Source: an uncultured Bifidobacteriaceae bacterium (GTDB lineage Bacteria; Bacteroidota; Bacteroidia; Chitinophagales; UBA10324). Taken from it: a stretch of 64,000 bases of DNA. The notes under the pieces are model-generated. The model was not told the DNA's origin. It saw only the letters and a program-made list of their open reading frames with translations, and ran no database searches. Location of the stretch: the NCBI GenBank assembly GCA_964424455.1, contig CAYRJA010000003.1, forward strand, positions 4,186 to 68,185. The letters run 5' to 3'. The position numbers were made by a program, and so were the translations under genes. This document shows positions 1-64,000 of this stretch, piece by piece (the first letter of the stretch is position 1; every line of letters begins with the position of its first letter).

Positions 1-1201
1 AAAGTTATTTATAGCACCCGGAAATCCGGGCACTGCACAATGTGGAGAAAATGTAACACTTTCTCCAACCGACTTTAATGCTGTTGGAAACTTCTGCTTA
101 ATAGAGGGGATTGAAATGATAGTAGTTGGTCCTGAAGATCCGTTAGTAAAAGGAGTTTACGATTATTTTCAGTCTGATGAAAAATTAAAACATATTGCAG
201 TGATTGGTCCTTCAAAAGCCGGAGCACAGTTAGAGGGAAGTAAAGCTTTTGCAAAAAAATTTATGCAGAAGTATGGAATCCCAACTGCTGCTTATCATTC
301 ATTTAATGAATCTCAGATAGACGAAGCAATTGAATATATAAGTAAGCAAACTCCGCCGGTTGTATTAAAAGCAGACGGATTAGCTGCAGGCAAAGGAGTA
401 ATCATTGCTCAGTCAACTGATGAAGCTGAGGAAATGCTGACAGAGATGCTGGTGCATGACAAGTTTGGAGAAGCCGGCAACAAAGTAGTGGTTGAACAAT
501 TTCTGAAAGGTATTGAAGTATCTGTTTTCGTATTAACAGATGGAAAAAATTATTTGCTTCTGCCCACTGCAAAAGATTATAAACGGGTGGGTGAAGGTGA
601 TACCGGATTAAATACCGGAGGAATGGGAGCCGTTTCACCGGTACCGTTTGCCGATGCTGCATTTATGAAAAAGGTAGAAGAAAGAATTATCCGTCCGACT
701 ATTTCGGGACTGCAGCAGGAGAAAATCACCTACAAGGGTTTTATTTACTTTGGTTTAATAAAGGTTAACAACGAGCCGTTTGTTATAGAATACAATTGCC
801 GGTTGGGTGATCCGGAAACGGAAGCAGTATTGCCACGCATTAAAACAGATTTGCTTGAGCTGTTTTCTGCTGTAACGGATGGAACACTCTCCAAAAAGAA
901 AATCGAAGTTACAGATGAAGCCGCTGTAACCATTGTTCTTACATCAGGCGGCTACCCCGATAAATTTGAAAAAGGAAAAGAGATAGCCGGTTTAGACAAA
1001 ATATCAAAGTCAATTGTATTTCATGCCGGAACCACTGAGAAAAACGGAAAACTGCTGACCAATGGCGGCAGAGTGCTGACTGTAACATCCTTTGGAAAAA
1101 ATATTAAAGAAGCGTTGGTACTGTCTAAAAAGAATGCTTCAATTATTTTTTTTGAGAAAAAATATTTCAGGAAGGATATTGGATTTGAATTTACCGAATG
1201 A
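1..1201 (+). CDS. purD: phosphoribosylamine--glycine ligase (GAR synthetase), 5' end outside the window
   Basis: The frame is open back to nt 2 (..LFIAPGNPGTAQCGEN.. precedes the listed Met), so the gene starts outside the window. ATP-grasp PurD motifs are present: VVGPEDPLV, KADGLAAGKGV, EYNCRLGDPE, GGRVLTVT. Confidence 0.95.
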   Translation, partial: KLFIAPGNPGTAQCGENVTLSPTDFNAVGNFCLIEGIEMIVVGPEDPLVKGVYDYFQSDEKLKHIAVIGPSKAGAQLEGSKAFAKKFMQKYGIPTAAYHSFNESQIDEAIEYISKQTPPVVLKADGLAAGKGVIIAQSTDEAEEMLTEMLVHDKFGEAGNKVVVEQFLKGIEVSVFVLTDGKNYLLLPTAKDYKRVGEGDTGLNTGGMGAVSPVPFADAAFMKKVEERIIRPTISGLQQEKITYKGFIYFGLIKVNNEPFVIEYNCRLGDPETEAVLPRIKTDLLELFSAVTDGTLSKKKIEVTDEAAVTIVLTSGGYPDKFEKGKEIAGLDKISKSIVFHAGTTEKNGKLLTNGGRVLTVTSFGKNIKEALVLSKKNASIIFFEKKYFRKDIGFEFTE

Positions 1202-1202
1202 T

Positions 1203-1225
1203 AAATCCACTTGCAGGATTTTTTT
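1203..1225 (+). terminator. weak rho-independent terminator candidate after purD
   Basis: The stem aaatcc (1203-1208) pairs with ggattt (1216-1221), with a 7-nt loop, followed by a T-run to 1225, directly after the purD stop. The stem is short and AT-rich. Confidence 0.3.
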
Positions 1226-1313
1226 CAGCAACCTTACTTATTAATATCAGAGTGATTACTATTCATCTGTAACATTATTCACAAATGAAATGAAAGATAT
1301 TGCACTCAAAGTA

Positions 1314-1871
1314 TCATTTGCGAATGTATTCCGTGTATCCTTGAGATTTACAGATAGCAGAAAAATACCGGATGATTTCGTCTTCATTTGTTTTCGTATA
1401 GAATACCAACTTGCTGGTGTCTCCTGCAAAGGAGGTATATTGCATCAGAGGAAAGTATTTTCTCAGAAAAGACAGAGTTGTATCGCTCTTTTCCCCTGTC
1501 AGAATCACAGGTGTTCCGATAAATCCTGTTGGTGTTTTTTGTATGGTGTAACAGGTCCAAAAACCCTTGGCGGCTCTTTCTGAAATAAAATAGTAATTAT
1601 TGTATTTTGAGAAAGTGAATGTGTCGCACAGATTGTAAGTTTCTGCTCTCTTAGTATGTAAGATAATCGAACCGCTCTTCACTGTTACCAACCCGTTGGA
1701 ATCCCTTTTCATCACTCCATCTCTTTTCTTCCAATCATAGCTTTGATATTTTCCGGTCAATTCTTTCGGAATCTGTTGAAGGCGACTGCCGGGCATGCGG
1801 TCGAAATAAATATTTTCACAACTTGTTACCGGTACAATGAGTATTAACAACCAAAGAATATTTTTTCTCAT
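1314..1871 (-). CDS. hypothetical lipoprotein
   Basis: The 185-aa ORF has an N-terminal signal peptide ending in a lipobox-like LIVPVTSC. No recognisable domain. Confidence 0.6.
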   Translation of the reverse strand: MRKNILWLLILIVPVTSCENIYFDRMPGSRLQQIPKELTGKYQSYDWKKRDGVMKRDSNGLVTVKSGSIILHTKRAETYNLCDTFTFSKYNNYYFISERAAKGFWTCYTIQKTPTGFIGTPVILTGEKSDTTLSFLRKYFPLMQYTSFAGDTSKLVFYTKTNEDEIIRYFSAICKSQGYTEYIRK

Positions 1872-2204
1872 AGCTAAATCCTTAAAATAATAACAAACTC
1901 AAAATACAAGTTTACTAAATTCAAATAATAAATTACTGCATAGTAAATAAAAAAGAGACGGGGATAAAGGAAAAGGACAAAATCTTCCCGATTTATATTT
2001 TCATTTCAATGTAACAGGTGTTACACTGAAAAATTCATAGAACAAAAATCAAACTTAACTGACACAACAAATAGTGTTACAACCATTGCATGCAGTTGCC
2101 TGTGAATATTTTACCTGAATGTATTAAGAAAATTGTCTTTTTTTACTGTGTTTGTTACATTTATCTTTTGAGATAATTTTTCTTTCATCCAAAAAATTTC
2201 GGAA

Positions 2205-10814: not shown

Positions 10815-11543
10815 ATGTTACAGCATACGCGCGGCATTGTATTCAGGTCGGTTAAGTACGGCGAAACAAGTCTGATAAGTAAAGTTTATACCGAACAATT
10901 CGGTATTCAGTCTTATATCATAAAGGGCGCCCGTTCAGGTAAATCGAAAACAAAGGCAGCGCTGTTACAGCCGCTGTCGTTGTTGGATATGCAGGTTTAT
11001 CACCGCGAGAATAAAAATATAAATCATCTGAAAGAGATAAACCCTGCTGTCATTTTTACTTCCATTCCGTTTGATGTGCTGAAAAGTTCTGTTGGGATTT
11101 TTATTATTGAAATTCTGTTACAGACCATAAAGGAAGAAGAAAAAAATCCGACACTCTTCAACTTTTTATTTGACACAATAAAAGAGTTGGATAACCAAAA
11201 AGATTCGGTTAAAGATTTTCATTTATTGTTTCTGATTCGCCTTTCAAAATTGCTTGGCTTTTTTCCATCGGGGAGTTTTTCAGACCGCAATAATTATTTC
11301 GATTTACAGGAAGGCATTTTTACTTCATCTCCTCCGCCTCACCCTTTATTCCTTTCCGGTGATTCCGCTCTTGTATTTTCTGAACTGATTCAATCTGCTG
11401 TAACAGGAAAGAAAAATTCAAACCTCAGTGGTGTAAAAAGAAAAGAACTGTTAAACAATTTGCTAACCTATTACAGTCTGCATATTTCAAATTTTAAAAA
11501 CATCCGTACGGTAAGAGTATTGGAAGAGGTGCTGGCGGGGTAA
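10815..11543 (+). CDS. recO: DNA repair protein RecO
   Basis: The 242-aa protein has a typical RecO N-terminal OB-fold start (TRGIVFRSVKYGETSLISKVYTEQFGIQSY) and typical size. Confidence 0.85.
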   Translation: MLQHTRGIVFRSVKYGETSLISKVYTEQFGIQSYIIKGARSGKSKTKAALLQPLSLLDMQVYHRENKNINHLKEINPAVIFTSIPFDVLKSSVGIFIIEILLQTIKEEEKNPTLFNFLFDTIKELDNQKDSVKDFHLLFLIRLSKLLGFFPSGSFSDRNNYFDLQEGIFTSSPPPHPLFLSGDSALVFSELIQSAVTGKKNSNLSGVKRKELLNNLLTYYSLHISNFKNIRTVRVLEEVLAG

Positions 11544-11837
11544 ACCGGTGTGGTGCAAGTATTGGTAAGAGTAGAAATGCAAAAGCAAAAAACTGAAAGG
11601 GTAATTATTGATAACCGCAGTGCATAAATACGTATGAGCAATTGAAACTACACAAAATACGATACGATTTATAATCTATGTTTCTTGCTTAATACAAATC
11701 ATTGCCAATGGATTGATTAGGTATTAAAGTGTTTTTGACAGTTTGAAGAGTTGCGTATATTTACGAGTTACCTGCAACCCGTGACGACCGTGCTAACTTA
11801 AAACTGACGACAAGAAACGAACAACTAAAATCAAAAT

Positions 11838-13595
11838 ATGAATCTTAGAAAATTTGAACCAGACGACTTTTCATCCTTTCAAGGAGAGATTGAGAAATCA
11901 AAAAATCTAGTTGAGAGAACTTTAAACCTGACTTGGTTTTATGTTCAAGCAAGATTCAGAATTCCAGAAAAGGAATTTAAAACTTATTACAGCGTTGACG
12001 GCTCAAATGACGGTGGTATTGATTGCTTCTTTCAAGAGGGCAACACTTTTTATTTGATACAATCTAAGTATCACGAGCGTTCACAACGAGAGAGTTTGAA
12101 TAGTATTACACATGAGTTGCAAAAAATTGAAAAGACATTGATTGGAGAAAACTCCAATCATTACGCTGCTGACTTTGTAAATGCTTTAAGACGGGCATTG
12201 GACAACCCGAACTCATACCTTGAAATTATTTGGCTGTCAACAAATGAAGTGAGTGAGAATATTAGAAAGGATTCACAGAATTTTTTGAACGGCATTTTAG
12301 GGGATCGTAATTGGCAGGTTAACGCAGACATCAACTTCATTGACAGATACGCTTTAGAAAGTGTAATCTATGATATTAAACATGGCTATGTTCCTCATAC
12401 AGGAAAAAAGGAAATTACTTACGAGCCAGGAGAATGTATGACGATTGATAAAGACAGAAGCAACATTGAGTCTATCGTAATAAATGCAAAGGCAATTGAA
12501 GTTATAAGATGGTTTGAGAGTTCAAGAGATATTGAAAAGTACCTTCAAAAAAATGTTCGTGAATCAATCGGAGAAAATGCAATCAATAAAAAAATCAGAG
12601 AGAGTTTTAAGACAGACCCAAACTTGTTTTGGTATAAGCACAATGGAATAATAATTTTTGCTGATTGGTTAGAAGTAAATCCAAATAACAGAAAGGTTAC
12701 TATCAGAAATCCTCAAATTGTAAATGGTGCACAGACAATTTCTCAACTTTACAAAGCGTATGACGAAAACAGAACTGAAAATAATCCAGCTAAAGTTTTA
12801 GTAAGAGTTTATCGTTTGCCATATGAAGATTCCGAAACTTACAAGAGAAGCATTGACATCATTTCTGCACTTAATTCTCAAAACAAAATCAAAGCGTCTG
12901 ACTTGCATTCAACTGACCCAAGACAGGTAATGATTGAGAACCGAATTAATGAATTAGCACAGCGATATAAATACCATAGGAAAAGAACAGAGGGCAGTAA
13001 AATGTCAAGCCCATTCAATATTAAAATGACTGAATTAGCTCTTTGCTTTTATGTTTCAGAGTATAAAAAACCTGACGAAGGTGTTGCAGGAGGAATTGAA
13101 TCTTTTTTTGAGGAAGACAAAAGATATTCAGAAGCATTTCCAGAAACTCAAATTAAAAAACCAATCACAAACAAAGTTGACCACATTGTTTTCAAGTATA
13201 TTGACAGTTGGAGATTATACTACTTCATTGACAGAAAATTTTCTTATGAGATTACACAAAAGCAGGGCGAGTTGTGGGCTTTTATTTATTGGTATGTTCT
13301 TGTTGACAGTTACAACCAATTACAAGATTGGAAAGAGAAAGTATTTGACGGAACTTGGAGAGAGTGGATTGATTTTACTTCAAGCAATTATTTTGAGAAT
13401 GGAATGATTAAATACTTGAAGCCAAGATACAAAGTTTATTTTGACATGCTGCCAAAAGCAGAATCAGACCCGAGAAACTTCTACAAAAGCACAACAGGAA
13501 GAAATAAATTTCTAAAGAATAGTGGTAGCTTCAATCAGTTCAAAAGTGCGATGAACAAGGTGTATCAGCAGTTCAAGAAATACAATGACGAATGA
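11838..13595 (+). CDS. AIPR-family abortive-infection protein with Mrr-like N-terminal nuclease motif
   Basis: 585 aa. The N-terminus DGSNDGGIDCFF..FYLIQSKYH matches the Mrr-cat type D..(Q/E)xK motif. The central IVNGAQTISQL motif is as I recall for the AIPR family (Pfam PF10592). Not searched; the call is from memory of the family. Confidence 0.65.
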   Translation: MNLRKFEPDDFSSFQGEIEKSKNLVERTLNLTWFYVQARFRIPEKEFKTYYSVDGSNDGGIDCFFQEGNTFYLIQSKYHERSQRESLNSITHELQKIEKTLIGENSNHYAADFVNALRRALDNPNSYLEIIWLSTNEVSENIRKDSQNFLNGILGDRNWQVNADINFIDRYALESVIYDIKHGYVPHTGKKEITYEPGECMTIDKDRSNIESIVINAKAIEVIRWFESSRDIEKYLQKNVRESIGENAINKKIRESFKTDPNLFWYKHNGIIIFADWLEVNPNNRKVTIRNPQIVNGAQTISQLYKAYDENRTENNPAKVLVRVYRLPYEDSETYKRSIDIISALNSQNKIKASDLHSTDPRQVMIENRINELAQRYKYHRKRTEGSKMSSPFNIKMTELALCFYVSEYKKPDEGVAGGIESFFEEDKRYSEAFPETQIKKPITNKVDHIVFKYIDSWRLYYFIDRKFSYEITQKQGELWAFIYWYVLVDSYNQLQDWKEKVFDGTWREWIDFTSSNYFENGMIKYLKPRYKVYFDMLPKAESDPRNFYKSTTGRNKFLKNSGSFNQFKSAMNKVYQQFKKYNDE

Positions 13596-13686
13596 CAGTG
13601 ATACAGGTGCAAACTTCTTATAAAGCTTTGTGCAGAAATCTAACTGACCTTCTTCGGACAGACAATCGGGCAGCAGGTAACAGCAC

Positions 13687-13791
13687 CTTGCCAAAAGTGG
13701 CGGTTTCGTGCTTCGTAGGACATTTTTGTGGGTATATAAACTTTAGTGCTTCGTAAGAAAGTGAGTGCTGAAAATCGCCACCTTCGGCAAG
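13687..13791. repeat. imperfect 20-bp inverted repeat (17/20) enclosing a 65-nt loop with an internal direct repeat
   Basis: cttgccaaaagtggcggttt (13687-13706) pairs with aaatcgccaccttcggcaag (13772-13791). The loop contains gtgcttcgta twice (13708-13717 and 13746-13755). The structure lies in the AIPR-downstream spacer. Confidence 0.7.
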
Positions 13792-13843
13792 CTGCCAACC
13801 GTTATGCCTCATGCTAAAAAGACAGACAACCAATAAATAAACT

Positions 13844-14641
13844 ATGGACAAACTGAAAATAAAAATAGTTTCTCTCGGACAACTTCCATTCAAGTTTGAC
13901 AAGAAAAGAATTGAAAAATGGAAATCTAACGTTTTTGAAATTGTTGGTGAAATTGAGACTTTGAAATTACCGTCAAAGACGGGGACAGATTCTCATAATT
14001 ACAGTGACAAAAATCTTGCTGAAAGTTTACCTGAAAAATTTAACGCAGACATTTTAATTTCAATGACAAATGTGCCACTTGAATATAATTGGTATTTGAG
14101 ACGACTTTCAAATAACAGAGTTTGTTTCACCATTTTTTCAAATGGCGGATATTCTAAGACCAAATAACATTCCACTCGAAAATTTTGCTCTTAGACTTAT
14201 TTATTCGATGACTTTAATTTACAGAAGACACGGTGACACTTTGCCGGACTCTGCTACTTCAACAAACTTTACACAAACACAGAAGGTTGTTTATTTGACT
14301 TTAATGGTATAAAAAGTGACGTAATATATTCGACTATAGGTTACCGGTTCGCCGTACGGATCTTTAATGGTATAAAAAGTGACGTAATATATTCGACAGT
14401 AAAGCCGACCTTATGTGACGATTGCGTTTCACGTCTTCAAAAAGAAAAAGTAACGAAAGAGACTGTTGACAAAGTAAAGAAAGAGCTTAAAACCATTGAT
14501 AAGGATTTATATTTCAGGGTGACAGACTTTATGAAAGAGAAACCATTTTTATCATTGACCATTTCTGCTTTGACTGCAATTTTGTTGGGTATTTTAGGCT
14601 CAATAATTTACGACAAATGGATAAAATTATTGCTCGAATGA
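13844..14641 (+). pseudogene. disrupted gene for a C-terminally membrane-anchored CxxC protein (two frameshifts plus a 63-bp in-frame insertion)
   Basis: The listed ORF 13844-14167 stops shortly after a T6 run (~14133-14138). The reading continues in frame 0 (MADILRPNNIPLENFALRLIYS..). It returns to the original frame from ~14237 (..TEGCLFDFNGIKSDVIYST..LCDDCVSRLQ..) and ends in a TM helix (LTISALTAILLGILGSIIY) with the stop at 14639-14641. The frameshifts could also be homopolymer sequencing errors. Confidence 0.55.
14299..14397. repeat. 36-nt perfect direct repeat separated by 27 nt (63-bp period) inside the disrupted gene
   Basis: ctttaatggtataaaaagtgacgtaatatattcgac occurs at 14299-14334 and again at 14362-14397. 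The unique 27 nt between the copies is tataggttaccggttcgccgtacggat. Confidence 0.9.
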
Positions 14642-14996
14642 AAGAAGCACGAAGGCATAACATCGTATTGGCAATCTTATCAGCTCCGAACAACCGTCTG
14701 TGCTTAACCGAAAGTTATCGCTCCGAACTTTTCGGCAAAGCCGTTTGGCTATCGCTTCGCAAAATATAAAGAGAAGCAACACATGCACACAAGCCAACGC
14801 TTCAGTTGCTTCACAGTGCAAGCCACCGCACAGCGACAGTGCAAGGGTTCGTGCAACCTCTGACCGACAGAGCATTGAATGTAAATCGCCTTGAACAAGG
14901 TTTCTGCAAACTTGAAACTGTATCGCTTCGGACGAAAAGCAAGGTAGTTGATAACATAAAGACTTACTTATATTTCAGTAACAAAATTTAATAACT

Positions 14997-15413
14997 ATGT
15001 GGTGGGTTTATGCAATTCTATCAGCTTTTTTTGCTTCACTAACTGCCCTTTTTGCAAAGATTGGCGTAGCAAACATCAATTCTAATTTGGCAACAGGCAT
15101 ACGCACTGTTGTTGTTTTAATAATGCTTTGGTGCATTATACTTGCAAGAGGAGAAGCAAAAGGAATTAACTCTTTATCAAAACTGAATGTGGCTTTTCTC
15201 GTTATGTCAGGTATTGCAACAGGTTTGTCGTGGTTGTTTTATTTTAAGGCGTTACAATCAGGAAATGTATCACAAGTGGCGGCTATTGACAAACTAAGCG
15301 TGGCTTTGACAATCATTTTAGCTATTACTTTTTTAGGCGAAACATTGACGCTGAAAGCCGCTATTGGTGCGTGTTTAATTATTGCAGGGACTCTGGTAAT
15401 GATTATAAAGTAA
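14997..15413 (+). CDS. small EamA-domain (DMT superfamily) membrane protein
   Basis: 138 aa with 4-5 predicted TM helices. Single EamA-type half (..DKLSVALTIILAITFLGETLTLKAAIGACLIIAGTLVM). Confidence 0.7.
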   Translation: MWWVYAILSAFFASLTALFAKIGVANINSNLATGIRTVVVLIMLWCIILARGEAKGINSLSKLNVAFLVMSGIATGLSWLFYFKALQSGNVSQVAAIDKLSVALTIILAITFLGETLTLKAAIGACLIIAGTLVMIIK

Positions 15414-15721
15414 CCGACAAATGATAGTCCCAACAATTCACGACAGACAGTTTACGGTCTCAAAAGAATATCAACGCAAAACCCGAAAGTCAGTTCCGAT
15501 ATGGAGTTCGCTGAATGTACCACAGCCCGGATAAAATACAGAAATTATAATTATTAATAACCACAACATTATAGCTGCTGAAATATTCTTTATGAATTTC
15601 TGTGGCTTTGGGGTATTTGTGGGTTAGCGGCAAACGTATTGCAACCGGTTGAATTTTAACCGGCTGAACTTTTTCCCGACTTTTTAGAATCTTTGACAGA
15701 ACTAAAAGTAGAAAAGACTGA

Positions 15722-16900
15722 ATGAGTGGTGACAAAACAATATCAAACCCGAAATATACTTTACGTCAACTTGTGTTGTATTTTCTCAAGCTCGGTTATT
15801 CAGGTTTTGGCGGACCCGTTGCGTTGGTAGGTTATATGCACAGGGACTTAGTTGAGAAACGGAACTGGATTTCGGAGGAAGAATACAAGGAAGGATTGGC
15901 ACTTGCTCAACTTGCACCTGGACCACTTGCAGCACAACTTGGAATGTATATCGGCTTCGTTCATTACGGAGTTCTTGGTGCTACGCTTTGCGGACTTGCA
16001 TTCGTCATTCCATCTTTCATTATGGTAGTGCTGATTGGCATTGCCTACAAAGTTTATGGAGGACTACCATGGATGCAAGCAGTTTTTTATGGAGTAGGCG
16101 CAGCAGTAATCGGCATTATTGCCATGAGCAGTTACAAACTCACAATAAAATCAGTAAGTAAATTAAACTTTGCTGACATCAAAACGAAATGGATTCTCTG
16201 GCTTTTCTATTTAGTAGCAGCAATAATTACAGTCATCACTCAATCGGAGGAAGTTTTACTTTTTGTCGCAGCAGGGTTACTTTACATGCTTATTAAAGCT
16301 CCACCAATGCTTCTGCAACGAAACACAAATTCAATCTTACTGACAGGATTAGGATTCTGGCAATTTGAATGGAACACTCTTGGACAAATTACTTGGTTCT
16401 TTACTAAAGCTGGTGCTTTCGTTTTTGGTAGCGGACTTGCCATAGTTCCATTTCTTCACGGAGGTGTTGTAACAGAATATCATTGGCTTGATGAAAAACA
16501 ATTTGTTGATGCAGTTGCAGTCGCAATGATAACCCCGGGTCCCGTTGTGATTACAGTTGGTTTCATCGGTTATTTAGTTGCAGGTTTCCCAGGTGCTTGC
16601 ATGGCAGCATTGGCAACTTTTCTTCCGTGTTATTTGCTGACAGTGATTCCGGCGCCTTACTTCAAAAAGATTGCTAAGAACGCAAGTATTAAAGCTTTTG
16701 TTGACGGAATAACGGCAGCAGTTTTCGGTGCATTAGTTGGAGCAGTAATTATTATAGGCATTCGTAGTATCACCGACATTCCGACAGCATTAATTGCTAT
16801 AGCAAGTGTTCTTGCAATCATCTACATCAAAAAAGCCCAAGAACCTTTTATCATTCTTGTTGCAGCAGTCATTGGACTAATACTTAAATCGCTTCTATGA
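15722..16900 (+). CDS. chrA: chromate ion transporter (CHR family, long-chain)
   Basis: 392 aa. LGYSGFGGPVALVGYMHRDLVEKRNWISEEEY..LAQLAPGPLA, with a second half-repeat ..FVFGSGLAIVPFL..VAVAMITPGPVV, typical of duplicated CHR domains. Confidence 0.85.
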   Translation: MSGDKTISNPKYTLRQLVLYFLKLGYSGFGGPVALVGYMHRDLVEKRNWISEEEYKEGLALAQLAPGPLAAQLGMYIGFVHYGVLGATLCGLAFVIPSFIMVVLIGIAYKVYGGLPWMQAVFYGVGAAVIGIIAMSSYKLTIKSVSKLNFADIKTKWILWLFYLVAAIITVITQSEEVLLFVAAGLLYMLIKAPPMLLQRNTNSILLTGLGFWQFEWNTLGQITWFFTKAGAFVFGSGLAIVPFLHGGVVTEYHWLDEKQFVDAVAVAMITPGPVVITVGFIGYLVAGFPGACMAALATFLPCYLLTVIPAPYFKKIAKNASIKAFVDGITAAVFGALVGAVIIIGIRSITDIPTALIAIASVLAIIYIKKAQEPFIILVAAVIGLILKSLL

Positions 16901-39989: not shown

Positions 39990-39995
39990 CAGTTC

Positions 39996-41048
39996 TTATT
40001 TAATTATTTTTTCAGTAAACTGATTCCAGCCCTGAGCGGTAATATCATAAATGTTGTTCGACTTGCTAACTAACTTTATTCCATCTGTAACACTTGTAAT
40101 GTGTCCTATTACAGATAGCAGCGGATTGTTTTTTATCTTTTCAAAATCCTTTTGTGCTACAGTGAACAGCAATTCATAATCTTCTCCGCCACTCAATGCA
40201 CAAGTAGTAGGATCAAGATTAAACTTCAGCGCCATGTTGTAGGTTTCTTCCGCAACCGGAATTTTATCTTCATACAACCGGCAGCCGACCTTTGAATTTT
40301 CGCAGATGTGAAGCACTTCGGAAGAAAGACCATCGGAAATGTCAATCATTGAAGTGGGGATTACTCCAAGCTGATCAAGTAATTCCACAATATCTTTTCT
40401 TGCTTCAGGCATCAATTGCCTGCCTACTAAGTATTTCTGATCTTCCAGATTGGGTTTAACGTTTGGGTTTTCAAGAAAAATTCTTTTCTCTCTTTCCAAT
40501 AATTGCAAGCCGAGATAAGCTGCTCCCAAATCTCCTGACACACAGAGCAAATCGCTTTCTTTTGCAGTGCTTCTCAACACAACTTTCTTTTCATCTACTT
40601 CACCGATTGCTGTAACAGAAATAACCAAACCTTTGGTAGAATTGGAAGTATCTCCGCCAACCAGATCTATTTTATATTTCTCGCAAGCGTGATAAATCCC
40701 CTCATATAACTCACTTAACGCTTCCACCGAAAAACGATTGGAAGCGGCAATAGAAACTGTTATCTGTTTCGGTATGGCATTCATCGCATACACATCAGAA
40801 AGATTCACAATAACAGACTTGTAGCCTAAATGTTTTAGCGGCACATACATCAAATCGAAATGAATTCCTTCAATAAGCAAATCGGTTGTTACAACTGTTC
40901 GTTTGTTATTGAATTGCAAAACGGCGGCATCATCACCAACTCCTACAATGCTTGATTCATTTTTCAATTTAAAATTCTGAGTGAGGTGACGGATTAATCC
41001 GAATTCACCAATACTTGAGACTTCTGTTCGTTGCGTTGTTTCTTCCAT
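39996..41048 (-). CDS. thiL: thiamine-monophosphate kinase
   Basis: SSIGEFGLIRHL, GDDAAV, DLLIEGIHFD, GGDTS. The start is set at Met 41048 (MEETTQRTEV). The 64-codon upstream extension of the listed ORF overlaps the divergent gene at 41090, and a -7 box lies at 41053-41060. Confidence 0.85.
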   Translation of the reverse strand: MEETTQRTEVSSIGEFGLIRHLTQNFKLKNESSIVGVGDDAAVLQFNNKRTVVTTDLLIEGIHFDLMYVPLKHLGYKSVIVNLSDVYAMNAIPKQITVSIAASNRFSVEALSELYEGIYHACEKYKIDLVGGDTSNSTKGLVISVTAIGEVDEKKVVLRSTAKESDLLCVSGDLGAAYLGLQLLEREKRIFLENPNVKPNLEDQKYLVGRQLMPEARKDIVELLDQLGVIPTSMIDISDGLSSEVLHICENSKVGCRLYEDKIPVAEETYNMALKFNLDPTTCALSGGEDYELLFTVAQKDFEKIKNNPLLSVIGHITSVTDGIKLVSKSNNIYDITAQGWNQFTEKIIK

Positions 41049-41052
41049 AGTG

Positions 41053-41060
41053 CAAAAATA
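41053..41060 (-). promoter_or_regulatory. -7 box (TAnnTTTG on the minus strand) 4 nt upstream of the thiL start
   Basis: The minus-strand reading is TATTTTTG (plus strand caaaaata, 41053-41060). This implies a very short or absent leader. Confidence 0.35.
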
Positions 41061-41077
41061 ATGAAAGTCAGTATTGT

Positions 41078-41085
41078 TAAATTTG
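41078..41085 (+). promoter_or_regulatory. -7 box (TAnnTTTG) 4 nt upstream of the 41090 gene
   Basis: TAAATTTG at 41078-41085. It is divergent to the thiL box. Confidence 0.35.
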
Positions 41086-41089
41086 CACA

Positions 41090-41596
41090 ATGATAAATCT
41101 GACTTTTCAATATACTCCTGAAGTTTTGCAGGAAGCATACACACTTCACTACAAAAAAAACACTGTGTTACAAGGGAGACTCCTTCTGTTCTTAGGGATT
41201 TTATTAATTTGGACAGGGTTGCTTCTAATTCTGATTTCAAGAAATGAGGGAAGACAGATTCTTAACTATTCCTTTGTGGTTTATGGGTTGATTATAATCG
41301 TTGTCCATATCCGGACAATGAAAACGATAGGGAAAAGAATGTTTAAGCAACTGAAAAACTCACCTCAAACCATACAGATTGCTGTTACAGAAGAAGAGAT
41401 TACAATGAAGACTGAAAGAGGAGAAACGATTATACAGTGGGAAAATTTTCAGCTTGCAGTTATCTCAGAAACTATAGTACTTCTGTATCCGACAAAATCT
41501 TCATTTTATATCTTTTCTAAAAAAGATTTTAAGGATGATGAGTTTAACTCGTTTATTACAATGGTGAAACAGAAAATTCAAACTGTTAAACAGTAA
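41090..41596 (+). CDS. YcxB-like membrane protein (two TM helices plus PH-like C-terminal region)
   Basis: 168 aa with two adjacent hydrophobic helices (LLLFLGILLIWTGLLLILI and FVVYGLIIIVV). The layout is like the YcxB family. Low-information call. Confidence 0.5.
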   Translation: MINLTFQYTPEVLQEAYTLHYKKNTVLQGRLLLFLGILLIWTGLLLILISRNEGRQILNYSFVVYGLIIIVVHIRTMKTIGKRMFKQLKNSPQTIQIAVTEEEITMKTERGETIIQWENFQLAVISETIVLLYPTKSSFYIFSKKDFKDDEFNSFITMVKQKIQTVKQ

Positions 41597-50510: not shown

Positions 50511-52274
50511 TTAAAGCACTGTAACACTTTTCTTCATCTGCATTTCATATAACCGGGCATAGAAGCCGTTTAGCTCAAGCAGTTCTGAATGTGTGCCCAT
50601 TTCTTTCATTTCTCCATGATCAAGCACTATAATCTTGTCTGCCTTCTGAATGGTGGAAAGCCGGTGTGCAATAATGATGGATGTGCGGTTTACAATCATT
50701 TTATCAATAGCCGCTTGAATCAGTTGCTCTGATTCAGTGTCAATAGATGAAGTGGCTTCATCTAAAATCAAAATCTTAGGGTCGAATATCAACGCACGCA
50801 CAAATGAAATAAGTTGCCGTTGCCCGTTTGATAAGGTAGCGCCGCGCTCTTTTACTTCGTAATCATATCTGCCCGGAAACTTCTCAATAAAATCATGAAT
50901 ACCACAAAGCTTGGCTGCATGGATTACTTCCTCTCTTTTCACATTGCTGTTTCTCAATGTTATATTTTCCATGATTGATCCGGAGAAGAGAAATACATCC
51001 TGTAACACTAATGCAATATTTCTGCGAAGAGAATACACATCATAGTCTTTAATATTTACTCCATCAATATAAATTGTTCCTTTCTGAATTTCATAGAAGC
51101 GGTTTAAAATATTAATGATGGATGATTTTCCTGCACCGGTTGCTCCCACTATAGCAAGAGTTTCTCCCTGCTTCACTTCAAATGAAATATCTTTCAATAC
51201 AAAATTCTTTTCATCATAAGCGAACCAGACATTTTCAAACCGGATATTTCCTGCTATGCTGTTAGCTGTTACAGTTCCTGTGTTTTGCAGTTTATCCTCA
51301 CTGTCAATTATCTTAAAAACCCGTTCTGCTGCTACCATTCCCATCTGTAACGTGTTGAACTTATCTGCCAACATCCGTATCGGACGGAAAAGAAGGTTAA
51401 TACAAATGATAAATGCATTCAACTGACCGACAGAAGTATATTCTTTCAGGTATTGCCCTGCCCAGTACCAAACCAGCAACCCCATTGCTACAGCAGAAAT
51501 AATTTCTACTGCAGGAAAAAAAACAGAATAATAAAAAATAGAACGAATGTGTGCCGAGCGATGTGCTTTGTTGATTTCTCTGAACTTCTTCATCTCTGAT
51601 TCTTCCGCATTAAAAATCTGTATCACACTCATTCCTGTAATATGTTCCTGCAAAAAAGTATTGAGCCGTGCTACCTGATTACGCACATCCGTAAACGATT
51701 TACGGATGCCTTCTTTAAAAAAATAAGTTGCAATCAGCAACAGTGGAAATACACTCATACAAATAAGGGTGATTTTCCATGATGATAGAAACATAAAGGT
51801 CAGCACTACAACAATCGTAAGCAAGTCGCTGAGAATGGTGATGATACCCTCTGAGAAAATATCATTGATGGTTTCAATATCATTAATTGTTCTTGTGGTT
51901 AATACGCCAACCGGAGTCTTATCAAAATACCTTGTATTCATACTGAGTAAATGTCCAAACACCCGAACACGCAGATTCTTTATTATAGACTGACCGAGCC
52001 AAGCTGTAATAAGTGTAAAGTTGTAGGAAAGGAATCCCTGGATAAATAATACCACCAACATTACGATGGTCATATTCTGTAGCATTTTCCAGTTGCCTTG
52101 TAAAATATATTTATCTATTGTCAACTGAATCAGGTAGGGATTAAGTACCGATAATCCGGCAATAAGTATTGCGATAAGAACAGCAATGTAAAACCTACGT
52201 TTGTATGGACCTACCAATCGCAATACACGCAGCAGTAAATTAAAATCAATAACTCTATCGAGCAGTTTCTTCAT
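50511..52274 (-). CDS. ABC transporter, fused permease/ATP-binding protein (MsbA/exporter type)
   Basis: 587 aa. Six-TM domain, then Walker A GATGAGKSS, signature LSNGQRQ, Walker B ILILDEATS. Confidence 0.9.
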   Translation of the reverse strand: MKKLLDRVIDFNLLLRVLRLVGPYKRRFYIAVLIAILIAGLSVLNPYLIQLTIDKYILQGNWKMLQNMTIVMLVVLFIQGFLSYNFTLITAWLGQSIIKNLRVRVFGHLLSMNTRYFDKTPVGVLTTRTINDIETINDIFSEGIITILSDLLTIVVVLTFMFLSSWKITLICMSVFPLLLIATYFFKEGIRKSFTDVRNQVARLNTFLQEHITGMSVIQIFNAEESEMKKFREINKAHRSAHIRSIFYYSVFFPAVEIISAVAMGLLVWYWAGQYLKEYTSVGQLNAFIICINLLFRPIRMLADKFNTLQMGMVAAERVFKIIDSEDKLQNTGTVTANSIAGNIRFENVWFAYDEKNFVLKDISFEVKQGETLAIVGATGAGKSSIINILNRFYEIQKGTIYIDGVNIKDYDVYSLRRNIALVLQDVFLFSGSIMENITLRNSNVKREEVIHAAKLCGIHDFIEKFPGRYDYEVKERGATLSNGQRQLISFVRALIFDPKILILDEATSSIDTESEQLIQAAIDKMIVNRTSIIIAHRLSTIQKADKIIVLDHGEMKEMGTHSELLELNGFYARLYEMQMKKSVTVL

Positions 52275-52278
52275 TTAG

Positions 52279-53043
52279 TTAATCAAAATAATTATCAGGA
52301 TATCTCACCTCAATTAATGTTAAACCATTAGCCGGTGCAGAAAAGTTCGTCTTATCAGGCTGCCGGCTTAAAATAATTTTCTCAAAATCTTCAACAGAGA
52401 GTTTACCTCTTCCTACCTGAATCATAGTTGCCACTAATCCGCGCACCATACCGCGCAAAAACCGGTTGGCGCTTACTATAAAAATCAATTCGTTTTCGCT
52501 CTTGTTATGCTTCCATTCTGCACGGGAAATAAAACAAAGTGAAGTTTTCACCTGAGTCCGCTTCTTGCTGAATGCCATATAATCAGTATGATGAAATAGT
52601 TTTTCCGCTGCCTCATTTAACCTGTCTGCATCAATTTCTGTATAGGGATAATAATAGGCAACCGCTGCGTTGAATGGATTTTTACGGTATGAAATAACAT
52701 ATCTGTATGTTCTGCCAATGGCATCAAAGCGGGCATTACATTTTGTGTTTACAGGAAAAATATTTTTTACCACCACATCATCCGGAAGCATAAAGTTAAT
52801 CCGCCAGATAAATTTATCCGGCAACGGATTAATAGCATCAAAGTGTAAAAAATTCTGCTGTGCATGAACGCCTTTATCCGTACGGCTGCTTCCCTGTGAA
52901 GTAATTTCTTCCCGGAAAAGAATGGAGAGCTGTTCATTCAATACCTGCTGAACCGTGTAGCCCGCATTCTTCTGTACTTGCCATCCGTTAAAGTTTGTGC
53001 CTTTGTAAGCCACCTCAAGAAAATATCTCTGAAAAGGGTGCAT
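52279..53043 (-). CDS. truA: tRNA pseudouridine(38-40) synthase
   Basis: 254 aa. YKGTNFNGWQVQ and the catalytic GSSRTDKGVHA. Confidence 0.92.
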   Translation of the reverse strand: MHPFQRYFLEVAYKGTNFNGWQVQKNAGYTVQQVLNEQLSILFREEITSQGSSRTDKGVHAQQNFLHFDAINPLPDKFIWRINFMLPDDVVVKNIFPVNTKCNARFDAIGRTYRYVISYRKNPFNAAVAYYYPYTEIDADRLNEAAEKLFHHTDYMAFSKKRTQVKTSLCFISRAEWKHNKSENELIFIVSANRFLRGMVRGLVATMIQVGRGKLSVEDFEKIILSRQPDKTNFSAPANGLTLIEVRYPDNYFD

Positions 53044-53057
53044 TCCGTTTTCTAATA

Positions 53058-53393
53058 TTAAAACTGTGCCCCTTTTAATTCCAACTGCAGGGGAGGAAGG
53101 TCAATCTGAATAATATCCCAAACTACATCGTAATTCACTCCGAAATAATCATGCACTAAACGGTTGCGAAGATCTGCCATCTCTTTAAATGGAATGTGTG
53201 GATTCTTAGAGCGAAAGGATTCAGAAAAAAGTTTTGCTGCTTCTCCAATAATCAGCAAGTTTCTTATAACCGCATCCTGAGTCTTTAAATCGTCTGTTAA
53301 CTGTTCATACTTATATCCCTTCAAATATTGCTGAATGCGTGAAATAGATTCAAGAATGTCCTGTACCAAAAGTTTATCTTCCCGTTTAGACAT
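53058..53393 (-). CDS. hepT: HepT-like (DUF86) ribonuclease toxin
   Basis: 111 aa with the Rx4HxY motif RNRLVHDY. It overlaps the upstream nucleotidyltransferase gene by 8 nt. Confidence 0.85.
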   Translation of the reverse strand: MSKREDKLLVQDILESISRIQQYLKGYKYEQLTDDLKTQDAVIRNLLIIGEAAKLFSESFRSKNPHIPFKEMADLRNRLVHDYFGVNYDVVWDIIQIDLPPLQLELKGAQF

Positions 53394-53700
53394 ATTCCAC
53401 TTCTTTCAAAATTCTTTCCGCTACTTCTTTAGCCCGAATACTTTTGACTCCTGCTGGTGTAAGAATATCTACAGGTCGCTGAAATTTCTCTTCAAGATAA
53501 TCGGCAAGATTAAAAAAACGAAACCCTGCCGGTTTATTAAATTCAATTATAAAATCAATATCACTATTAGCTGTGGCTAATCCTTTCACGAAAGAACCAA
53601 AAAGTCCAACTCTCTTCACACCAAAATACTCCTGAAGGAAGGGAAGTTCTTCCTTGATTTTTTCTTTTATTAATGATTTACTCAGCATAGTTACTTGCAA
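53386..53700 (-). CDS. mntA: MntA-type minimal nucleotidyltransferase antitoxin
   Basis: 104 aa. GLFGSFVKGLATANSDIDF, i.e. the GS-x10-DxD nucleotidyltransferase motif. Confidence 0.85.
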   Translation of the reverse strand: MQVTMLSKSLIKEKIKEELPFLQEYFGVKRVGLFGSFVKGLATANSDIDFIIEFNKPAGFRFFNLADYLEEKFQRPVDILTPAGVKSIRAKEVAERILKEVEYV

Positions 53701-53706
53701 ATTTAC

Positions 53707-54903
53707 TTATACTCTTTCATAAACTACTGCTGCTCCCTGACCTACCCCCACACACATGGTTGCTAAACCATAGCGCACTTTTCTTTTCTTCATTTCATGT
53801 AACAGCGTTGCAGAAATGCGGGAACCTGAACATCCCAAAGGATGACCGATAGCGATAGAACCACCGTTTACATTTATTTTAGAAACATCCAGATTCAACT
53901 CGCGGATGCAGGCAATGGATTGCGATGCAAATGCCTCATTCAACTCAATTAAATCCAAATCATTTACAGAAATACCGGCGCGCTTCAATACCTTTTTTGT
54001 AGCCGGAACGGGACCTGTTCCCATATAAGCAGGGTCAACACCTGCAGAGGCAGATGTCACTACCCTTGCCATCGGCGTAAGATTCATTTCTTTCACCGCT
54101 TTATCCGAAGCCAGAATCAAACAAGCTGCCCCGTCATTTATTCCTGAGGAATTTCCTGCTGTTACAGTTCCACCTTTTTTAAATGCCGGCTTTAATCCTG
54201 CCAGCTTTTCTAAAGAAGTTTCCCGAGGCGGTTCATCCTTACTGAAAATCATTTCCTCCCCTTTGCTGTTGTAAACATTTACAGGAATCAACTCCTCTCT
54301 GAACTTCTGTGCCTTATGTGCGGCAGCATATTTTTCTTGTGATAACAGTGCAAACCGGTCTTGTTCTTCTCTGGAAATCTTCCATTTCTCTGCTACATTC
54401 TCCGCAGTTTCCCCCATGGAATAAGGATAGTGTATATCCGTAAGTTTTTTATTGGCAAACCGCCAGCCGATAGTTGAGTCATAAATTTCGGTTTTTCGAC
54501 TAAATCCTTTTTCTGATTTTGACATGACAAATGGCGCCCGTGTCATACTCTCTACTCCCCCTGCAAGATAAATATCTCCTTCACCGCACTTAATAGCCCG
54601 CGCTGCATCCATAACAGACTGTAACCCTGAAGCACACAGCCGGTTAACTGTAACACCTCCAACTTCTACAGGTAATCCTGCGAGCAGCGCTGCCATGCGG
54701 GCAACATCACGGTTATCTTCGCCTGCCTGATTAGCATCACCAAAAATTACATCCTCAATCCGGCTGACATCCACATTTGGATTGCGTTTGATAATTTCTT
54801 TAATCACTAATGCGGCTAAATCATCCGGACGAACAGAACTTAATGCTCCACCATACTTTCCAATAGGTGTGCGCACTACATCAATTATATATACTTCATT
54901 CAT
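53707..54903 (-). CDS. acetyl-CoA C-acyltransferase (thiolase)
   Basis: 398 aa. VNRLCASGLQ (active-site Cys), NEAFA, GGSIAIGHPLGCSG, CVGVGQG. Confidence 0.92.
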   Translation of the reverse strand: MNEVYIIDVVRTPIGKYGGALSSVRPDDLAALVIKEIIKRNPNVDVSRIEDVIFGDANQAGEDNRDVARMAALLAGLPVEVGGVTVNRLCASGLQSVMDAARAIKCGEGDIYLAGGVESMTRAPFVMSKSEKGFSRKTEIYDSTIGWRFANKKLTDIHYPYSMGETAENVAEKWKISREEQDRFALLSQEKYAAAHKAQKFREELIPVNVYNSKGEEMIFSKDEPPRETSLEKLAGLKPAFKKGGTVTAGNSSGINDGAACLILASDKAVKEMNLTPMARVVTSASAGVDPAYMGTGPVPATKKVLKRAGISVNDLDLIELNEAFASQSIACIRELNLDVSKINVNGGSIAIGHPLGCSGSRISATLLHEMKKRKVRYGLATMCVGVGQGAAVVYERV

Positions 54904-56769: not shown

Positions 56770-56897
56770 ACAATAGATTTAGAAAGGTAGAAGAATTTTT
56801 GATTTTGTATTCACTCTATTATCAGTCATATAATTGTAAATAAATATACTAAGCTGTAACACAGATGTTACAATATGGCACTTAGACAAAGTAGCCG

Positions 56898-62180: not shown

Positions 62181-62223
62181 TCAGGAATTTACTTCTTTAT
62201 GAAAATTATTTTAAAGCAGATAC

Positions 62224-63576
62224 TCAGTTTTTATACATAATCCATTTCCCCAACTCGCGAAGTGTTACTTTTTTCCCATACATTAATATTCCAACGCGGT
62301 AAATCTTTCCTGCTAACCAAACAGTGAATATAAATCCGGCAACTAAAATCAGCATGGAAGAAACTACTTGCCACATTGGTGGTTCAAATGGCAGTCGTCC
62401 ACACATAACTATCGGTGAAGTAAGCGGAAAAATAGAAGCGATAATAGAGAGCGTACTATTCGGCTGTTGTATGGTGTTTACCAGAATAATGAATGAAATA
62501 ATTATCGGAAGTGTGGCAATCAGGGAAAGCGCCTGTGCCTGCTCCTGCTCTTCACCCGCCGCAGAACCAACTGCAGCAAACAGTGAGGCATAAATCATGT
62601 AACCACCAAAGAAATAAAAAATGAATCCAAAGATGAGCAGACCGATGGGTAAATCATTCAGTTCACCAATTGCTTTGCCGAACGAATCCCATCCGCCCAT
62701 CTGCTGTTCAATCTGCTGCTGTGCCTGCTGTTGTCCTAAAGGTGATACCTGTTGCATAGGCATAACCTGCTTCTGTGCTTGCTCTAATTTACTGCTGTAA
62801 GTTATTTGCAATCCACCAAGAATAATTACAATTAAAATAATCCATGCTGCAAACTGAGTAAGCCCGACAAGTGCAATACCGATAATCTTTCCCATCATCA
62901 GTTGGAATGGTTTTACGGATGATACCATAATCTCTGCTATACGGTTTGCTTTTTCTTCCATTACGCCCCGCATAACCATTACTCCGTAAATCATAATTAT
63001 AAAATACAAGAAGAAGCCCATGATAGAGCCGATAGCCGTAGCCACTCCGGTATTGGCTCGTTTTTCTCCATCCACTCCCTGCACTGTAACACTAAGTTTT
63101 ACTCCTTCACTCAGTTGCTTAATCATTTCAGGAGATAAATCAGAATTGACTTTTGCTAATCGTTCACGTGTTACAATATCTGTCAGTTGACTTGAAATAG
63201 CAGATTGAATTCCGAATCCAATCTGTTCATCTGAAAAATATTCTACCGGCGCTGAATTATTGTACATATTGTAATCAGCAGGAATGTGAAGGATACCGGA
63301 AAGGTGTAGTCCCTTGTATGTTTTCTTCAATGAGTCAAACGGCACATTCATATACATAAAGGTGAGGTCGCCTTTATTTTCCAGCTTATCTTTAAAGATA
63401 CCTGAATCATCTGTTACAGCTATCACTTTTGACTCGGTAGAGGCTTTGTTAATCAGAATAGGTAACAGAAAAATAAGAGCAAAGCCAAGCGGCGTCAAAA
63501 AAGTAGTGATGATGAAAACCTTTTTTCTCACTCTTGTGATGTATTCCCTGCGAATGATAAGAAGAATCTTGTTCAT
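62224..63576 (-). CDS. ABC-2 type transporter permease (NatB-like)
   Basis: 450 aa. N-terminal TM helix, large extracytoplasmic loop, then five C-terminal TM helices. It lies directly downstream of an ABC ATPase gene. Confidence 0.8.
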   Translation of the reverse strand: MNKILLIIRREYITRVRKKVFIITTFLTPLGFALIFLLPILINKASTESKVIAVTDDSGIFKDKLENKGDLTFMYMNVPFDSLKKTYKGLHLSGILHIPADYNMYNNSAPVEYFSDEQIGFGIQSAISSQLTDIVTRERLAKVNSDLSPEMIKQLSEGVKLSVTVQGVDGEKRANTGVATAIGSIMGFFLYFIIMIYGVMVMRGVMEEKANRIAEIMVSSVKPFQLMMGKIIGIALVGLTQFAAWIILIVIILGGLQITYSSKLEQAQKQVMPMQQVSPLGQQQAQQQIEQQMGGWDSFGKAIGELNDLPIGLLIFGFIFYFFGGYMIYASLFAAVGSAAGEEQEQAQALSLIATLPIIISFIILVNTIQQPNSTLSIIASIFPLTSPIVMCGRLPFEPPMWQVVSSMLILVAGFIFTVWLAGKIYRVGILMYGKKVTLRELGKWIMYKN

Positions 63577-63677
63577 TAGAATATTATTGACTGACAGTTC
63601 TTTATTGAGTACCTTTTGTAAAAATTATTTATTGCTCCTATTTTATTCATGCTGCTGCTAAACAAATACCAAAATTG

Positions 63678-64000
63678 TTACTTAGTCACCTGACTTATAA
63701 ATATTTCATTAAGTGAAGGAAGAATTTCATTGTACCCAACTAAGTTGGTATTCTGATTTAATAATGAACGCAGTAAATCATTCGGCGTTCCGCTGTTGAT
63801 GCGAATTACCAATTCATGATCACGGCGAACTTCTATAGGGAAATTTTCATTTAATGTCGGTTCTGCTCCTTCATATTTTATGAGAAATTGGTTCTGCTTA
63901 AACTGTTGTTTGATGTCTTTCACTGCTCCGTTCAGAATTACTTTACCTGAATTGTAAAGTACAATATCTTCACAAATCTCTTCTACCTGTTCCATGCGGT
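63678..64000 (-). CDS. ABC transporter ATP-binding protein, C-terminal part only (gene continues past the window end)
   Basis: The ORF is open to the window edge. ..MEQVEEICEDIVLYNSGKVILNG.. is the region after Walker B and the H-loop, followed by a DUF4162-like C-terminal domain. Confidence 0.75.
   Translation of the reverse strand, partial: RMEQVEEICEDIVLYNSGKVILNGAVKDIKQQFKQNQFLIKYEGAEPTLNENFPIEVRRDHELVIRINSGTPNDLLRSLLNQNTNLVGYNEILPSLNEIFISQVTK

Follow-up and report, generated by a model that had tools for sequence, protein, structure and literature searches.

Throughout a 64,000-bp stretch of DNA from an uncultured bacterium of the Bacteroidota (contig CAYRJA010000003.1, positions 4,186 to 68,185; 38.6% G+C), the seven-base palindrome TGTWACA, in which W is A or T, is present far more often than base composition predicts. 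Counts given below refer to this one stretch, called the window, except where a relative is named. The excess belongs to the DNA itself; the word is symmetrical, specific, subject to a uniform pressure, retained between species and found in a narrow group of relatives among which its strength is graded. It is very likely, in our judgement, that TGTWACA, with a weaker outer layer that extends it to CTGTWACAG, is a protein-read, iterated palindrome acting at the DNA level in the manner of HIP1, the highly iterated palindrome (HIP) of cyanobacteria.

The exact count on the + strand is 116 (51 copies of TGTAACA and 65 of TGTTACA). A preliminary description of the window, made by eye, had put the number at about 110-115, and the 28 positions that it listed for 1-11,543 are all exact, with none missing and none extra. 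Its rough estimate of 10-15 copies expected by chance was also right: Markov models of order 0, 1 and 2 predict 13.0, 10.2 and 13.7 copies, respectively, and a model of order 3 predicts 19.1. The expectation rises to 38 at order 4 and to 96 at order 5, the maximal order, where the observed/expected ratio (O/E) is 1.2. We discarded the order-5 model as a null because it is built from the signal: 84% of TGTAAC copies and 79% of GTAACA copies lie within TGTWACA itself. The preliminary description had named two outcomes that would count against its own claim, an O/E near 1-2 under a higher-order model and an enrichment confined to one reading frame or dipeptide. The first of these appeared only at order 5, conditioned on sub-words that are some 80% motif-derived, and the second is contradicted by the frame analysis given below.

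TGTWACA is the commonest heptamer of the window, above all A/T-rich words, and CTGTWACAG is the commonest 9-mer, with 35 copies against 0.5 expected; each of the nine commonest 9-mers contains or overlaps the motif. These counts correspond to 1,813 copies of the 7-mer and 547 copies of the 9-mer per Mb. The O/E climbs with word length, from 1.5 for GTAAC through 3.3-3.4 for the 6-mers and 8.9 for the 7-mer to 27 for the 8-mer and 72 for the 9-mer. Specificity extends over all seven positions, as the one-mismatch neighbours occur in only 1-35 copies each, and the centre of the word is restricted to A or T (TGTCACA and TGTGACA are present six times each). Outside the core, C is found at position -1 in 59% of sites and G at position +1 in 53%, and the two flanks are independent of each other (35 copies of CTGTWACAG observed, 35.8 calculated from the marginals). 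The A and T forms are balanced (51:65; binomial p = 0.23). In each of these respects (rare neighbours, C..G flanks and equal central forms) the preliminary description was accurate. The surroundings of the sites carry no information content outside positions -2 to +2, which rules out a dispersed repeat of the repetitive extragenic palindrome or miniature inverted-repeat transposable element type.

The abundance of TGTWACA is the more striking because the same window shuns many other short palindromes. CTAG has two copies (O/E 0.01), GGCC, ACGT, TCGA and GATC have O/E values of 0.08, 0.12, 0.22 and 0.35, respectively, and ATCGAT, CTTAAG, GTATAC and ACTAGT have no copy at all in 64 kb. CCGG, on the other hand, is enriched 3.4x (GCCGGC 5.5x, ACCGGT 3.5x), and words containing CCGG rank at the top in motif-poor relatives too. 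Together, the avoidance of palindromes and the excess of CCGG suggest heavy restriction-modification pressure and a second bias, towards CCGG, that is family-wide.

If the excess were a consequence of what the genes encode, it should persist when codons are exchanged for synonyms, and it does not. Sites are about as dense in coding DNA (1.79/kb) as in non-coding DNA (2.0/kb). Within genes, 76 sites lie in the frame xxT|GTW|ACA (x-Val-Thr), 23 in xTG|TTA|CAx ([Leu/Met/Val]-Leu-[Gln/His]) and 5 in TGT|WAC|A (Cys-Asn/Tyr); TGTAACA is missing from the second of these frames because a TAA stop would arise. When synonymous codons were shuffled 300 times with the protein sequences and overall codon usage fixed, genes contained 17.7±4.0 sites, compared with 104 observed (O/E 5.9, z = 21.7), and the highest count over all shuffles was 29-31. 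Under this null, the O/E is 5.6, 4.9 and 6.7 in the three frames, in the order given. Non-coding DNA, to which no codon argument applies, has 12 sites where an order-2 model predicts 1.5, a 7.9x excess. Moreover, GTW-ACA is the spelling of 89 of the 121 Val-Thr dipeptides, where codon usage would predict 28%, and the codon preceding these pairs ends in T in 76 of the 89 cases (85%), compared with 36% of codons overall. As the sense strand carries the word in both orientations (46 A-form, 58 T-form), a signal read in RNA is also disfavoured. Thus, as the preliminary description had proposed, TGTWACA occurs in intergenic DNA and in all three coding frames as a DNA-level signal; codon and dipeptide causes are excluded.

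A translational or protein-level artefact, through codon-pair bias, Val-Thr-rich beta-strand proteins or the oligonucleotide composition of AT-rich Bacteroidota, has accordingly next to no probability. It has some initial appeal, in that 73% of coding sites encode Val-Thr, that Val-Thr is over-represented in the window (121 vs 73), and that dense local clusters of the word in unrelated genomes are indeed explained in this way. The synonymous shuffle, the T-ending codon before GTW-ACA and the equal excess in the second frame, the third frame and non-coding DNA refute it here, as do relatives of similar G+C content in which the O/E lies below 1 and Val-Thr is spelled GTW-ACA at about the rate that their own codon usage would give. 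In the lineages where the word is strong, Val-Thr is inflated relative to Thr-Val, and the pressure therefore reaches the protein sequence too.

The full word is present at 76 of 121 Val-Thr and 23 of 37 [LMV]L[QH] opportunities, or approximately 60%. Occupancy is similarly high in conserved housekeeping genes (12/23 Val-Thr, 6/8 [LMV]L[QH]) and in genes for large surface proteins or type IX secretion system (T9SS) proteins (36/56 and 4/6, respectively). Relative to neutral codon choice, the odds ratio of occupancy is approximately 15 (ln 2.7). If occupancy is treated as a balance of mutation, selection and drift, then, as a rough inference, the force on each site would be weak, and of the order of strong codon bias or biased conversion.

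Along the window the sites are scattered at random. Gaps between them are exponentially distributed (Kolmogorov-Smirnov p = 0.86) and the variance/mean ratio per 2 kb is 1.01, so the pattern is Poisson-like at approximately 1.8 per kb, or one site per 550 bp on average. The densest gene is recO (10815..11543, + strand), with 4 sites or 5.5 per kb. This is a single gene, but its density recalls the bias of the DNA uptake sequence (DUS) of Neisseria towards genome-maintenance genes. It could also be cited in favour of a Chi-like signal that protects self DNA and stimulates recombination through a resection complex of the AddAB or RecBCD type, again on the strength of one gene. Chi words are short, lineage-specific and over-represented, and a Chi-like effect has been suggested for HIP1 (bioRxiv 10.1101/2024.09.10.611283). 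However, recognition of Chi takes place on single strands and depends on orientation, and copies of Chi favour the leading strand, whereas TGTWACA is palindromic and its A and T forms are balanced in a window where GC skew is mostly positive. In addition, 1.8 sites per kb exceeds the density of known Chi sites of 7-8 bases. We therefore regard a Chi-like role as quite unlikely.

One stretch departs from this random scatter. The largest motif-free gap, at 11399..16468, spans 5,069 bp (P(gap >= 5069) = 1e-4 per gap, or 0.012 when corrected for 115 gaps). It contains an AIPR abortive-infection-type gene (11838-13595), followed by approximately 1.4 kb without long open reading frames (ORFs) and then by a half-length fragment of an EamA transporter gene (14997-15413). 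Most ORFs in this gap have a G+C content of 31-37%, and one ORF of 94 aa on the opposite strand has 41%. The segment is probably recently acquired, decaying DNA, and looks like a decaying defence-island insertion adjoining recO. The second-largest gap, at 51267..53798 (2,531 bp), holds truA and a toxin-antitoxin pair consisting of a HepT-like RNase and an MNT nucleotidyltransferase (53058-53700). Both of the largest deserts thus coincide with defence or toxin-antitoxin cargo, and these two are compatible with a word that builds up the longer a piece of DNA has been resident, so that newcomers lack it. The desert genes have one Val-Thr in 924 codons, which leaves a test normalized for opportunity without power.

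Close pairs of sites occur in two intergenic regions, each lying between divergent genes. One is the inverted pair TGTAACA-GG-TGTTACA (2010..2025), which belongs to a cluster of four sites (2010, 2019, 2075 and 2153) in a 333-bp region; the other is TGTAACA-CAGA-TGTTACA (56855..56872). These pairs could be operator-like, two being too few to judge. The non-coding sites of the window have no extended context in common, and scans of the window for tRNAs and Rfam families gave no match. Two genes for ChrA-family chromate-efflux transporters, on opposite strands, are no more than 5 kb apart (15722-16900 and 19982-21178).

The fate of individual sites could be followed in a 16-kb stretch (24967..41257) that is syntenic with a locus of a close relative, L161, at 83% nucleotide identity. 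Following Xu et al. (PMC5861425), who argued that HIP1 is retained by selection, we compared the retention of motif sites with that of control words. Fifteen sites are shared (two of them through an A/T swap at the centre), 12 are found only in the window and five only in L161. The Jaccard index for identical sites reaches 0.38, where the full set of heptamers with that composition gives 0.20 (p = 0.016). Similarly, the codon GTW is conserved in 86% of cases inside the motif and 60% outside it, and ACA in 77% and 54%, respectively, while third positions overall are 66% identical. Between L161 and L162, two strains with 99.2% identity (109 substitutions), the only motif change is a gain, from CGTAACA to TGTAACA, at a place where the window has AGTAACA; approximately 0.13 gains were expected, and this is a single event. 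None of the 15 sites was lost in this comparison, again from few events.

If the word were fed by conversion of a particular neighbour, that neighbour should be depleted. The relevant proposal is that TGTWACA is a by-product of very-short-patch (Vsr) type repair coupled to a 5-methylcytosine methyltransferase, as for CCWGG in E. coli, whereby repair of T:G mismatches would turn TGTWATA into TGTWACA. The Dcm/Vsr effect of E. coli is an established precedent, and a W-centred palindrome with one cytosine per strand has the appropriate form. When one-mismatch neighbours were compared with GC-matched relatives, however, no single word was depleted (range 0.56-4x), which disfavours a Vsr-like drain of one neighbour; the presumed donor words are at 1.42x (TGTAATA/TATTACA) and 1.07x (TATAACA/TGTTATA). 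Furthermore, the pressure bears on all seven positions plus the flanks and not on one base, and its magnitude (9-72x) is far above the Vsr effect. The methyltransferase coupled to biased repair that the preliminary description had considered is, in this form, highly improbable. Some neighbours are mildly enriched instead (TGTSACA 4x, AGTAACA 2x), as expected of decayed copies.

The host of the window is placed in the Bacteroidota by T9SS genes (PorZ, and type A and type B sorting domains), and RNase Y places it in the Chitinophagales/Chitinophagaceae, which bears out the phylum given in the preliminary description. The nearest species-representative genomes have an RNase Y of only 76-77% identity; closer relatives, at 96%, 92% and 91%, were found in public read assemblies. 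A query with PorZ gave no match to related genomes, and one with asparagine synthase returned only distant, probably horizontally mobile homologues, which served as a background panel only. An exact look-up of the window's own protein brought up no record.

Among these relatives the trait is narrow and graded. Using mononucleotide expectations throughout, the O/E is 8.9 in the window, 6.0 in L161 (96% RNase Y identity; 25 sites vs 4.1 expected) and 5.4 in L165 (91% identity). Two independent contigs of one metagenome-assembled genome (MAG), JBBQJW01 (L081 and L424), have 34 sites where 3.9 are expected (P = 8e-21), and L082 has an O/E of 3.1. The loci L083, L084, L085 and L127 have values of 1.3-1.9, with 22 sites compared with approximately 6 at the family background rate (P = 8e-7). 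In the next outgroup, L167-170, there are 8 sites against 13.8 expected; in approximately 70 other Chitinophagaceae loci (L086-L160) the O/E is nearly always below 1, with a maximum of 2.3, and 80 further loci, mostly of Bacteroidota, have a median of 0.42. Overall, the clade has 1,545 sites per Mb and GC-matched relatives have 136, an 11.4-fold excess that supports the earlier suggestion of a highly iterated palindrome or uptake-signal-like word.

A codon-level index, the share of Val-Thr dipeptides written as GTW-ACA, can be computed from shorter sequences and shows the same gradient. Observed and expected values are 0.75 and 0.28 in the window, 0.63 and 0.17 in L081, 0.57 and 0.28 in L161, 0.50 and 0.26 in L082, and 0.39 and 0.21 in L083-85 plus L127, and they converge in L167-170 (0.16 and 0.14) and in the other Chitinophagaceae (0.24 and 0.22). 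In a tree of the single gene for RNase Y, the genus-level group that contains the window is sister to the L081-L085 group, and the motif-free L167-170 fall outside both. On this single-gene basis, a single origin at the root of the clade, followed by strengthening or decay in sub-lineages as for HIP1, would be the most parsimonious history.

The trait was also sought more widely with multi-site pattern scans, two of genome collections (185k species) and one of viral sequences. The matches listed are mostly coding tandem repeats, Val-Thr-rich surface proteins, iteron-like arrays and hairpin arrays, and after screening, the only true signature among the matches listed was L424, the second contig of the L081 MAG. 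One candidate from the Clostridia, L486, was rejected since local codon usage explains it (0.73 observed vs 0.58 expected). In L491 (Bacteroidales), 12 of 26 Val-Thr dipeptides are spelled GTW-ACA against an expected fraction of 0.28, and 9 of the 12 follow a T; this is a single locus, chosen for its cluster of sites. Several Collinsella loci were among the matches listed in the second scan, and in high-GC sequences, L257:6321-6849 (a Collinsella MAG) and L505:510-703 and 6218-7789, inverted repeats with a period of approximately 80 bp (GTCTCGATCTGTAACAG ... CTGTTACAGATCGAGAC) form hairpin-repeat arrays.

A different arrangement was seen in unrelated Bacteroidia and in other MAGs, namely non-coding arrays in which (C/G)TGTWACA is repeated 5-9 times in direct orientation with a spacing of 8-10 bp, often as two opposed arrays. 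Examples are L233:2213-2908, L235:3045-3185, L220:2474-2512, L449:7003-7300 and L498:5993-6207, the last with a second array (5296-5308) approximately 700 bp away. In appearance they resemble iterons or the arm-type binding-site arrays of mobile elements or replicons, which implies that the phylum has proteins able to read the same word.

What, then, might TGTWACA do? Its specificity at seven positions, W centre, independent flanks, occurrence in both orientations, uniform pressure, retention and graded distribution all point to a word of double-stranded DNA with a symmetric reader. The simplest such reader would be a homodimer that binds or modifies DNA in a sequence-specific manner. Each site might carry a small advantage, or a transmission bias, and the word would have been written into every sequence that tolerates it, mainly by synonymous changes at third positions and in part by a shift of proteins towards Val-Thr, until some 60% of permissive positions were filled and recently arrived DNA stood out as lacking it. 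The tag would probably be read in its methylated form, by way of a cognate orphan methyltransferase. By favouring the uptake, processing or recombination of conspecific DNA, such a tag would accumulate through that very bias, a working mode like those proposed for HIP1 in cyanobacteria, for DUS in Neisseriaceae and the uptake signal sequence (USS) in Pasteurellaceae, and for RAATTY methylation in Campylobacter. We tentatively favour this possibility, to which we would give somewhat less than an even chance: that TGTWACA is a self-DNA tag in DNA exchange or recombination, probably read via methylation, and that it accumulates by molecular drive, weak selection or both. In this scheme a reader protein, methylation of the word and its connection with DNA exchange are putative.

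Seven-base, W-centred palindromes are a typical format of sites for type II restriction-modification systems and orphan methyltransferases. Several findings from other organisms are also in keeping with a methylated self tag. HIPs co-occur with cognate methyltransferases (PMC4390886), and methylated HIP1 raises natural transformation more than 100-fold in a methylation-dependent manner (bioRxiv 10.1101/2024.09.10.611283); HIP1 has been proposed as a phylum-wide uptake signal (bioRxiv 10.64898/2026.06.24.733823). Within the Bacteroidota, natural transformation of Riemerella columbina prefers self DNA, and no motif is known there (PMC7965970). In marine MAGs, GTWAC has been seen to be methylated and has no counterpart in REBASE (PMC8919816), which is a lead and not evidence for this genome.

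Other observations weigh against a self tag. Genes for a methyltransferase, a nuclease, competence or a candidate reader were seen neither in the window nor in approximately 140 kb of clade DNA, which is a small fraction of a genome and thus weak evidence either way, and a regular-expression scan of 94 clade ORFs for methyltransferase catalytic motifs found none. Known uptake sequences are asymmetric and often form inverted pairs at terminators, whereas TGTWACA is palindromic and its close pairs lie in promoter-like regions; nor is its spacing any more even than random, unlike that reported for USS. Finally, the conservation excess was measured in a single species pair, over 34 sites (p about 0.02), and a neutral conversion bias would yield such an excess just as selection would.

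Among the alternatives, we consider it unlikely, although worth weighing with some care, that the sites are bound by an abundant, lineage-specific nucleoid-associated or chromosome-organizing protein, thousands of them being selected for folding or segregation of the chromosome. Xu, Lawrence and Durand proposed such a role for HIP1 (PMC5861425), and a symmetric 7-9 bp site with independent half-site flanks, a uniform density over coding and non-coding DNA and retention between species are what it would produce; the iteron-like arrays in other Bacteroidia likewise imply that TGTWACA-reading proteins exist in the phylum. However, the motifs of known nucleoid proteins are degenerate, and such proteins are not known to push an exact word to an occupancy of approximately 60% of permissive codons. 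In 64 kb the spacing is Poisson-like, and no candidate gene was seen there.

Rather unlikely, too, is the proposal made by Elhai for HIPs, in which the word marks DNA for methyl-directed mismatch repair or strand discrimination. Repair would weaken with distance from a methylated site, repair tracts would convert near-cognate words, and copies would arise by a ratchet. The W-centred palindrome typical of type II methyltransferase targets, a coverage dense enough for strand discrimination, the co-occurrence of HIPs with cognate methyltransferases (PMC4390886) and the mildly enriched one-off variants, which fit decay and renewal, are consistent with it. On the other side, spacing is random and not regular, neighbours show no directional depletion, and no methyltransferase was identified in the window or the clade DNA. 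Furthermore, the Bacteroidota are without MutH, and the machinery needed would be hypothetical.

Literature searches on the word, on HIP-like elements and on uptake sequences brought up no such element for the Bacteroidota, in agreement with the preliminary description. In the literature found, TGTWACA appears only in operator consensus sequences of the OmpR type, and the related methylated GTWAC motif only in unidentified marine MAGs. Hyper-abundant exact palindromes have so far been known from one phylum, in the form of HIP1 and its variants in cyanobacteria, and whether HIP1 serves nucleoid structure, repair or transformation has been debated for three decades. A second, unrelated case, with another sequence, another phylum and graded intensities in close relatives, provides an independent test of these ideas. 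It also offers a tractable route to the causal gene, through the correlation of gene content and methylomes with motif density. A wider claim, which we put forward as doubtful, is that a HIP/DUS-type system arose independently in the Bacteroidota, as a genome-wide self tag whose putative reader, a methyltransferase or DNA-binding protein open to horizontal acquisition, would bias DNA exchange, recombination or defence. If so, relatives that range from approximately 75% to approximately 15% Val-Thr conversion could reveal that gene by correlation of presence and absence, something not achieved for HIP1 in 30 years.

There are practical consequences as well. The word skews the choice of codons and goes as far as altering amino-acid composition. 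Approximately 60% of Val-Thr dipeptides are dictated by TGTWACA, which bears on analyses of codon usage and selection and on the detection of horizontal gene transfer in these genomes. Potentially, the word could distinguish native from foreign DNA and provide a design rule for genetic tools in an uncultured freshwater lineage.

How does TGTWACA compare with known systems? Chi and the CCWGG/Vsr system of E. coli are likewise lineage-specific, over-represented short words tied to recombination or repair. Chi is oriented and strand-skewed, and Vsr repair has a small effect that drains one particular neighbour; TGTWACA shows neither property. In Campylobacter jejuni, RAATTY methylated by CtsM shows that a short, AT-rich palindrome can act as a self mark if methylated, which is a plausible route by which TGTWACA might act in uptake; the abundance of RAATTY, however, simply follows from the AT-richness of the genome, and no drive is known that takes it far beyond its expected frequency. 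DUS and USS resemble TGTWACA in their density (approximately 1-2 copies per kb), in occurring in both orientations and being fitted in via permissive codons and peptides, in being common to related species, and in being missing from recently acquired DNA, as we infer here from two deserts. Their pattern, like that of TGTWACA, can be explained by molecular drive from a biased uptake machinery. They differ in being asymmetric words of 9-12 bases, in having defined receptors or competence systems, and in often forming inverted pairs at terminators.

The closest parallel is with HIP1 (GCGATCGC) and the alternative HIPs. A cognate and usually orphan methyltransferase ties HIPs together and is defining for them, and none was found in the window or the clade DNA. 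TGTWACA is also unrelated in sequence, being AT-rich, odd-length and W-centred, and its host is a T9SS-bearing member of the Chitinophagales and not a cyanobacterium. Its O/E is lower than that of HIP1 for the 7-mer core (9x) and comparable for the 9-mer (72x); HIP1 has a periodicity of 10-90 kb, and the spacing of TGTWACA is known from a window of 64 kb. In other respects TGTWACA behaves like a HIP, and what is new is the sequence and the phylum. Like the HIPs, which reach 500-2,700 copies per Mb, it is the top exact palindrome of its genome segment, at approximately 1,800 (7-mer) or 550 (9-mer) per Mb. As in the HIP class in the sense of Elhai (2015), we found over-representation, occurrence in all frames and in non-coding DNA, and conservation above control words, here with modest support from 34 sites of one species pair. 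It further shares with HIP1 palindromic outer extensions, mildly enriched one-off variants and a lineage-specific, graded distribution with losses among relatives.

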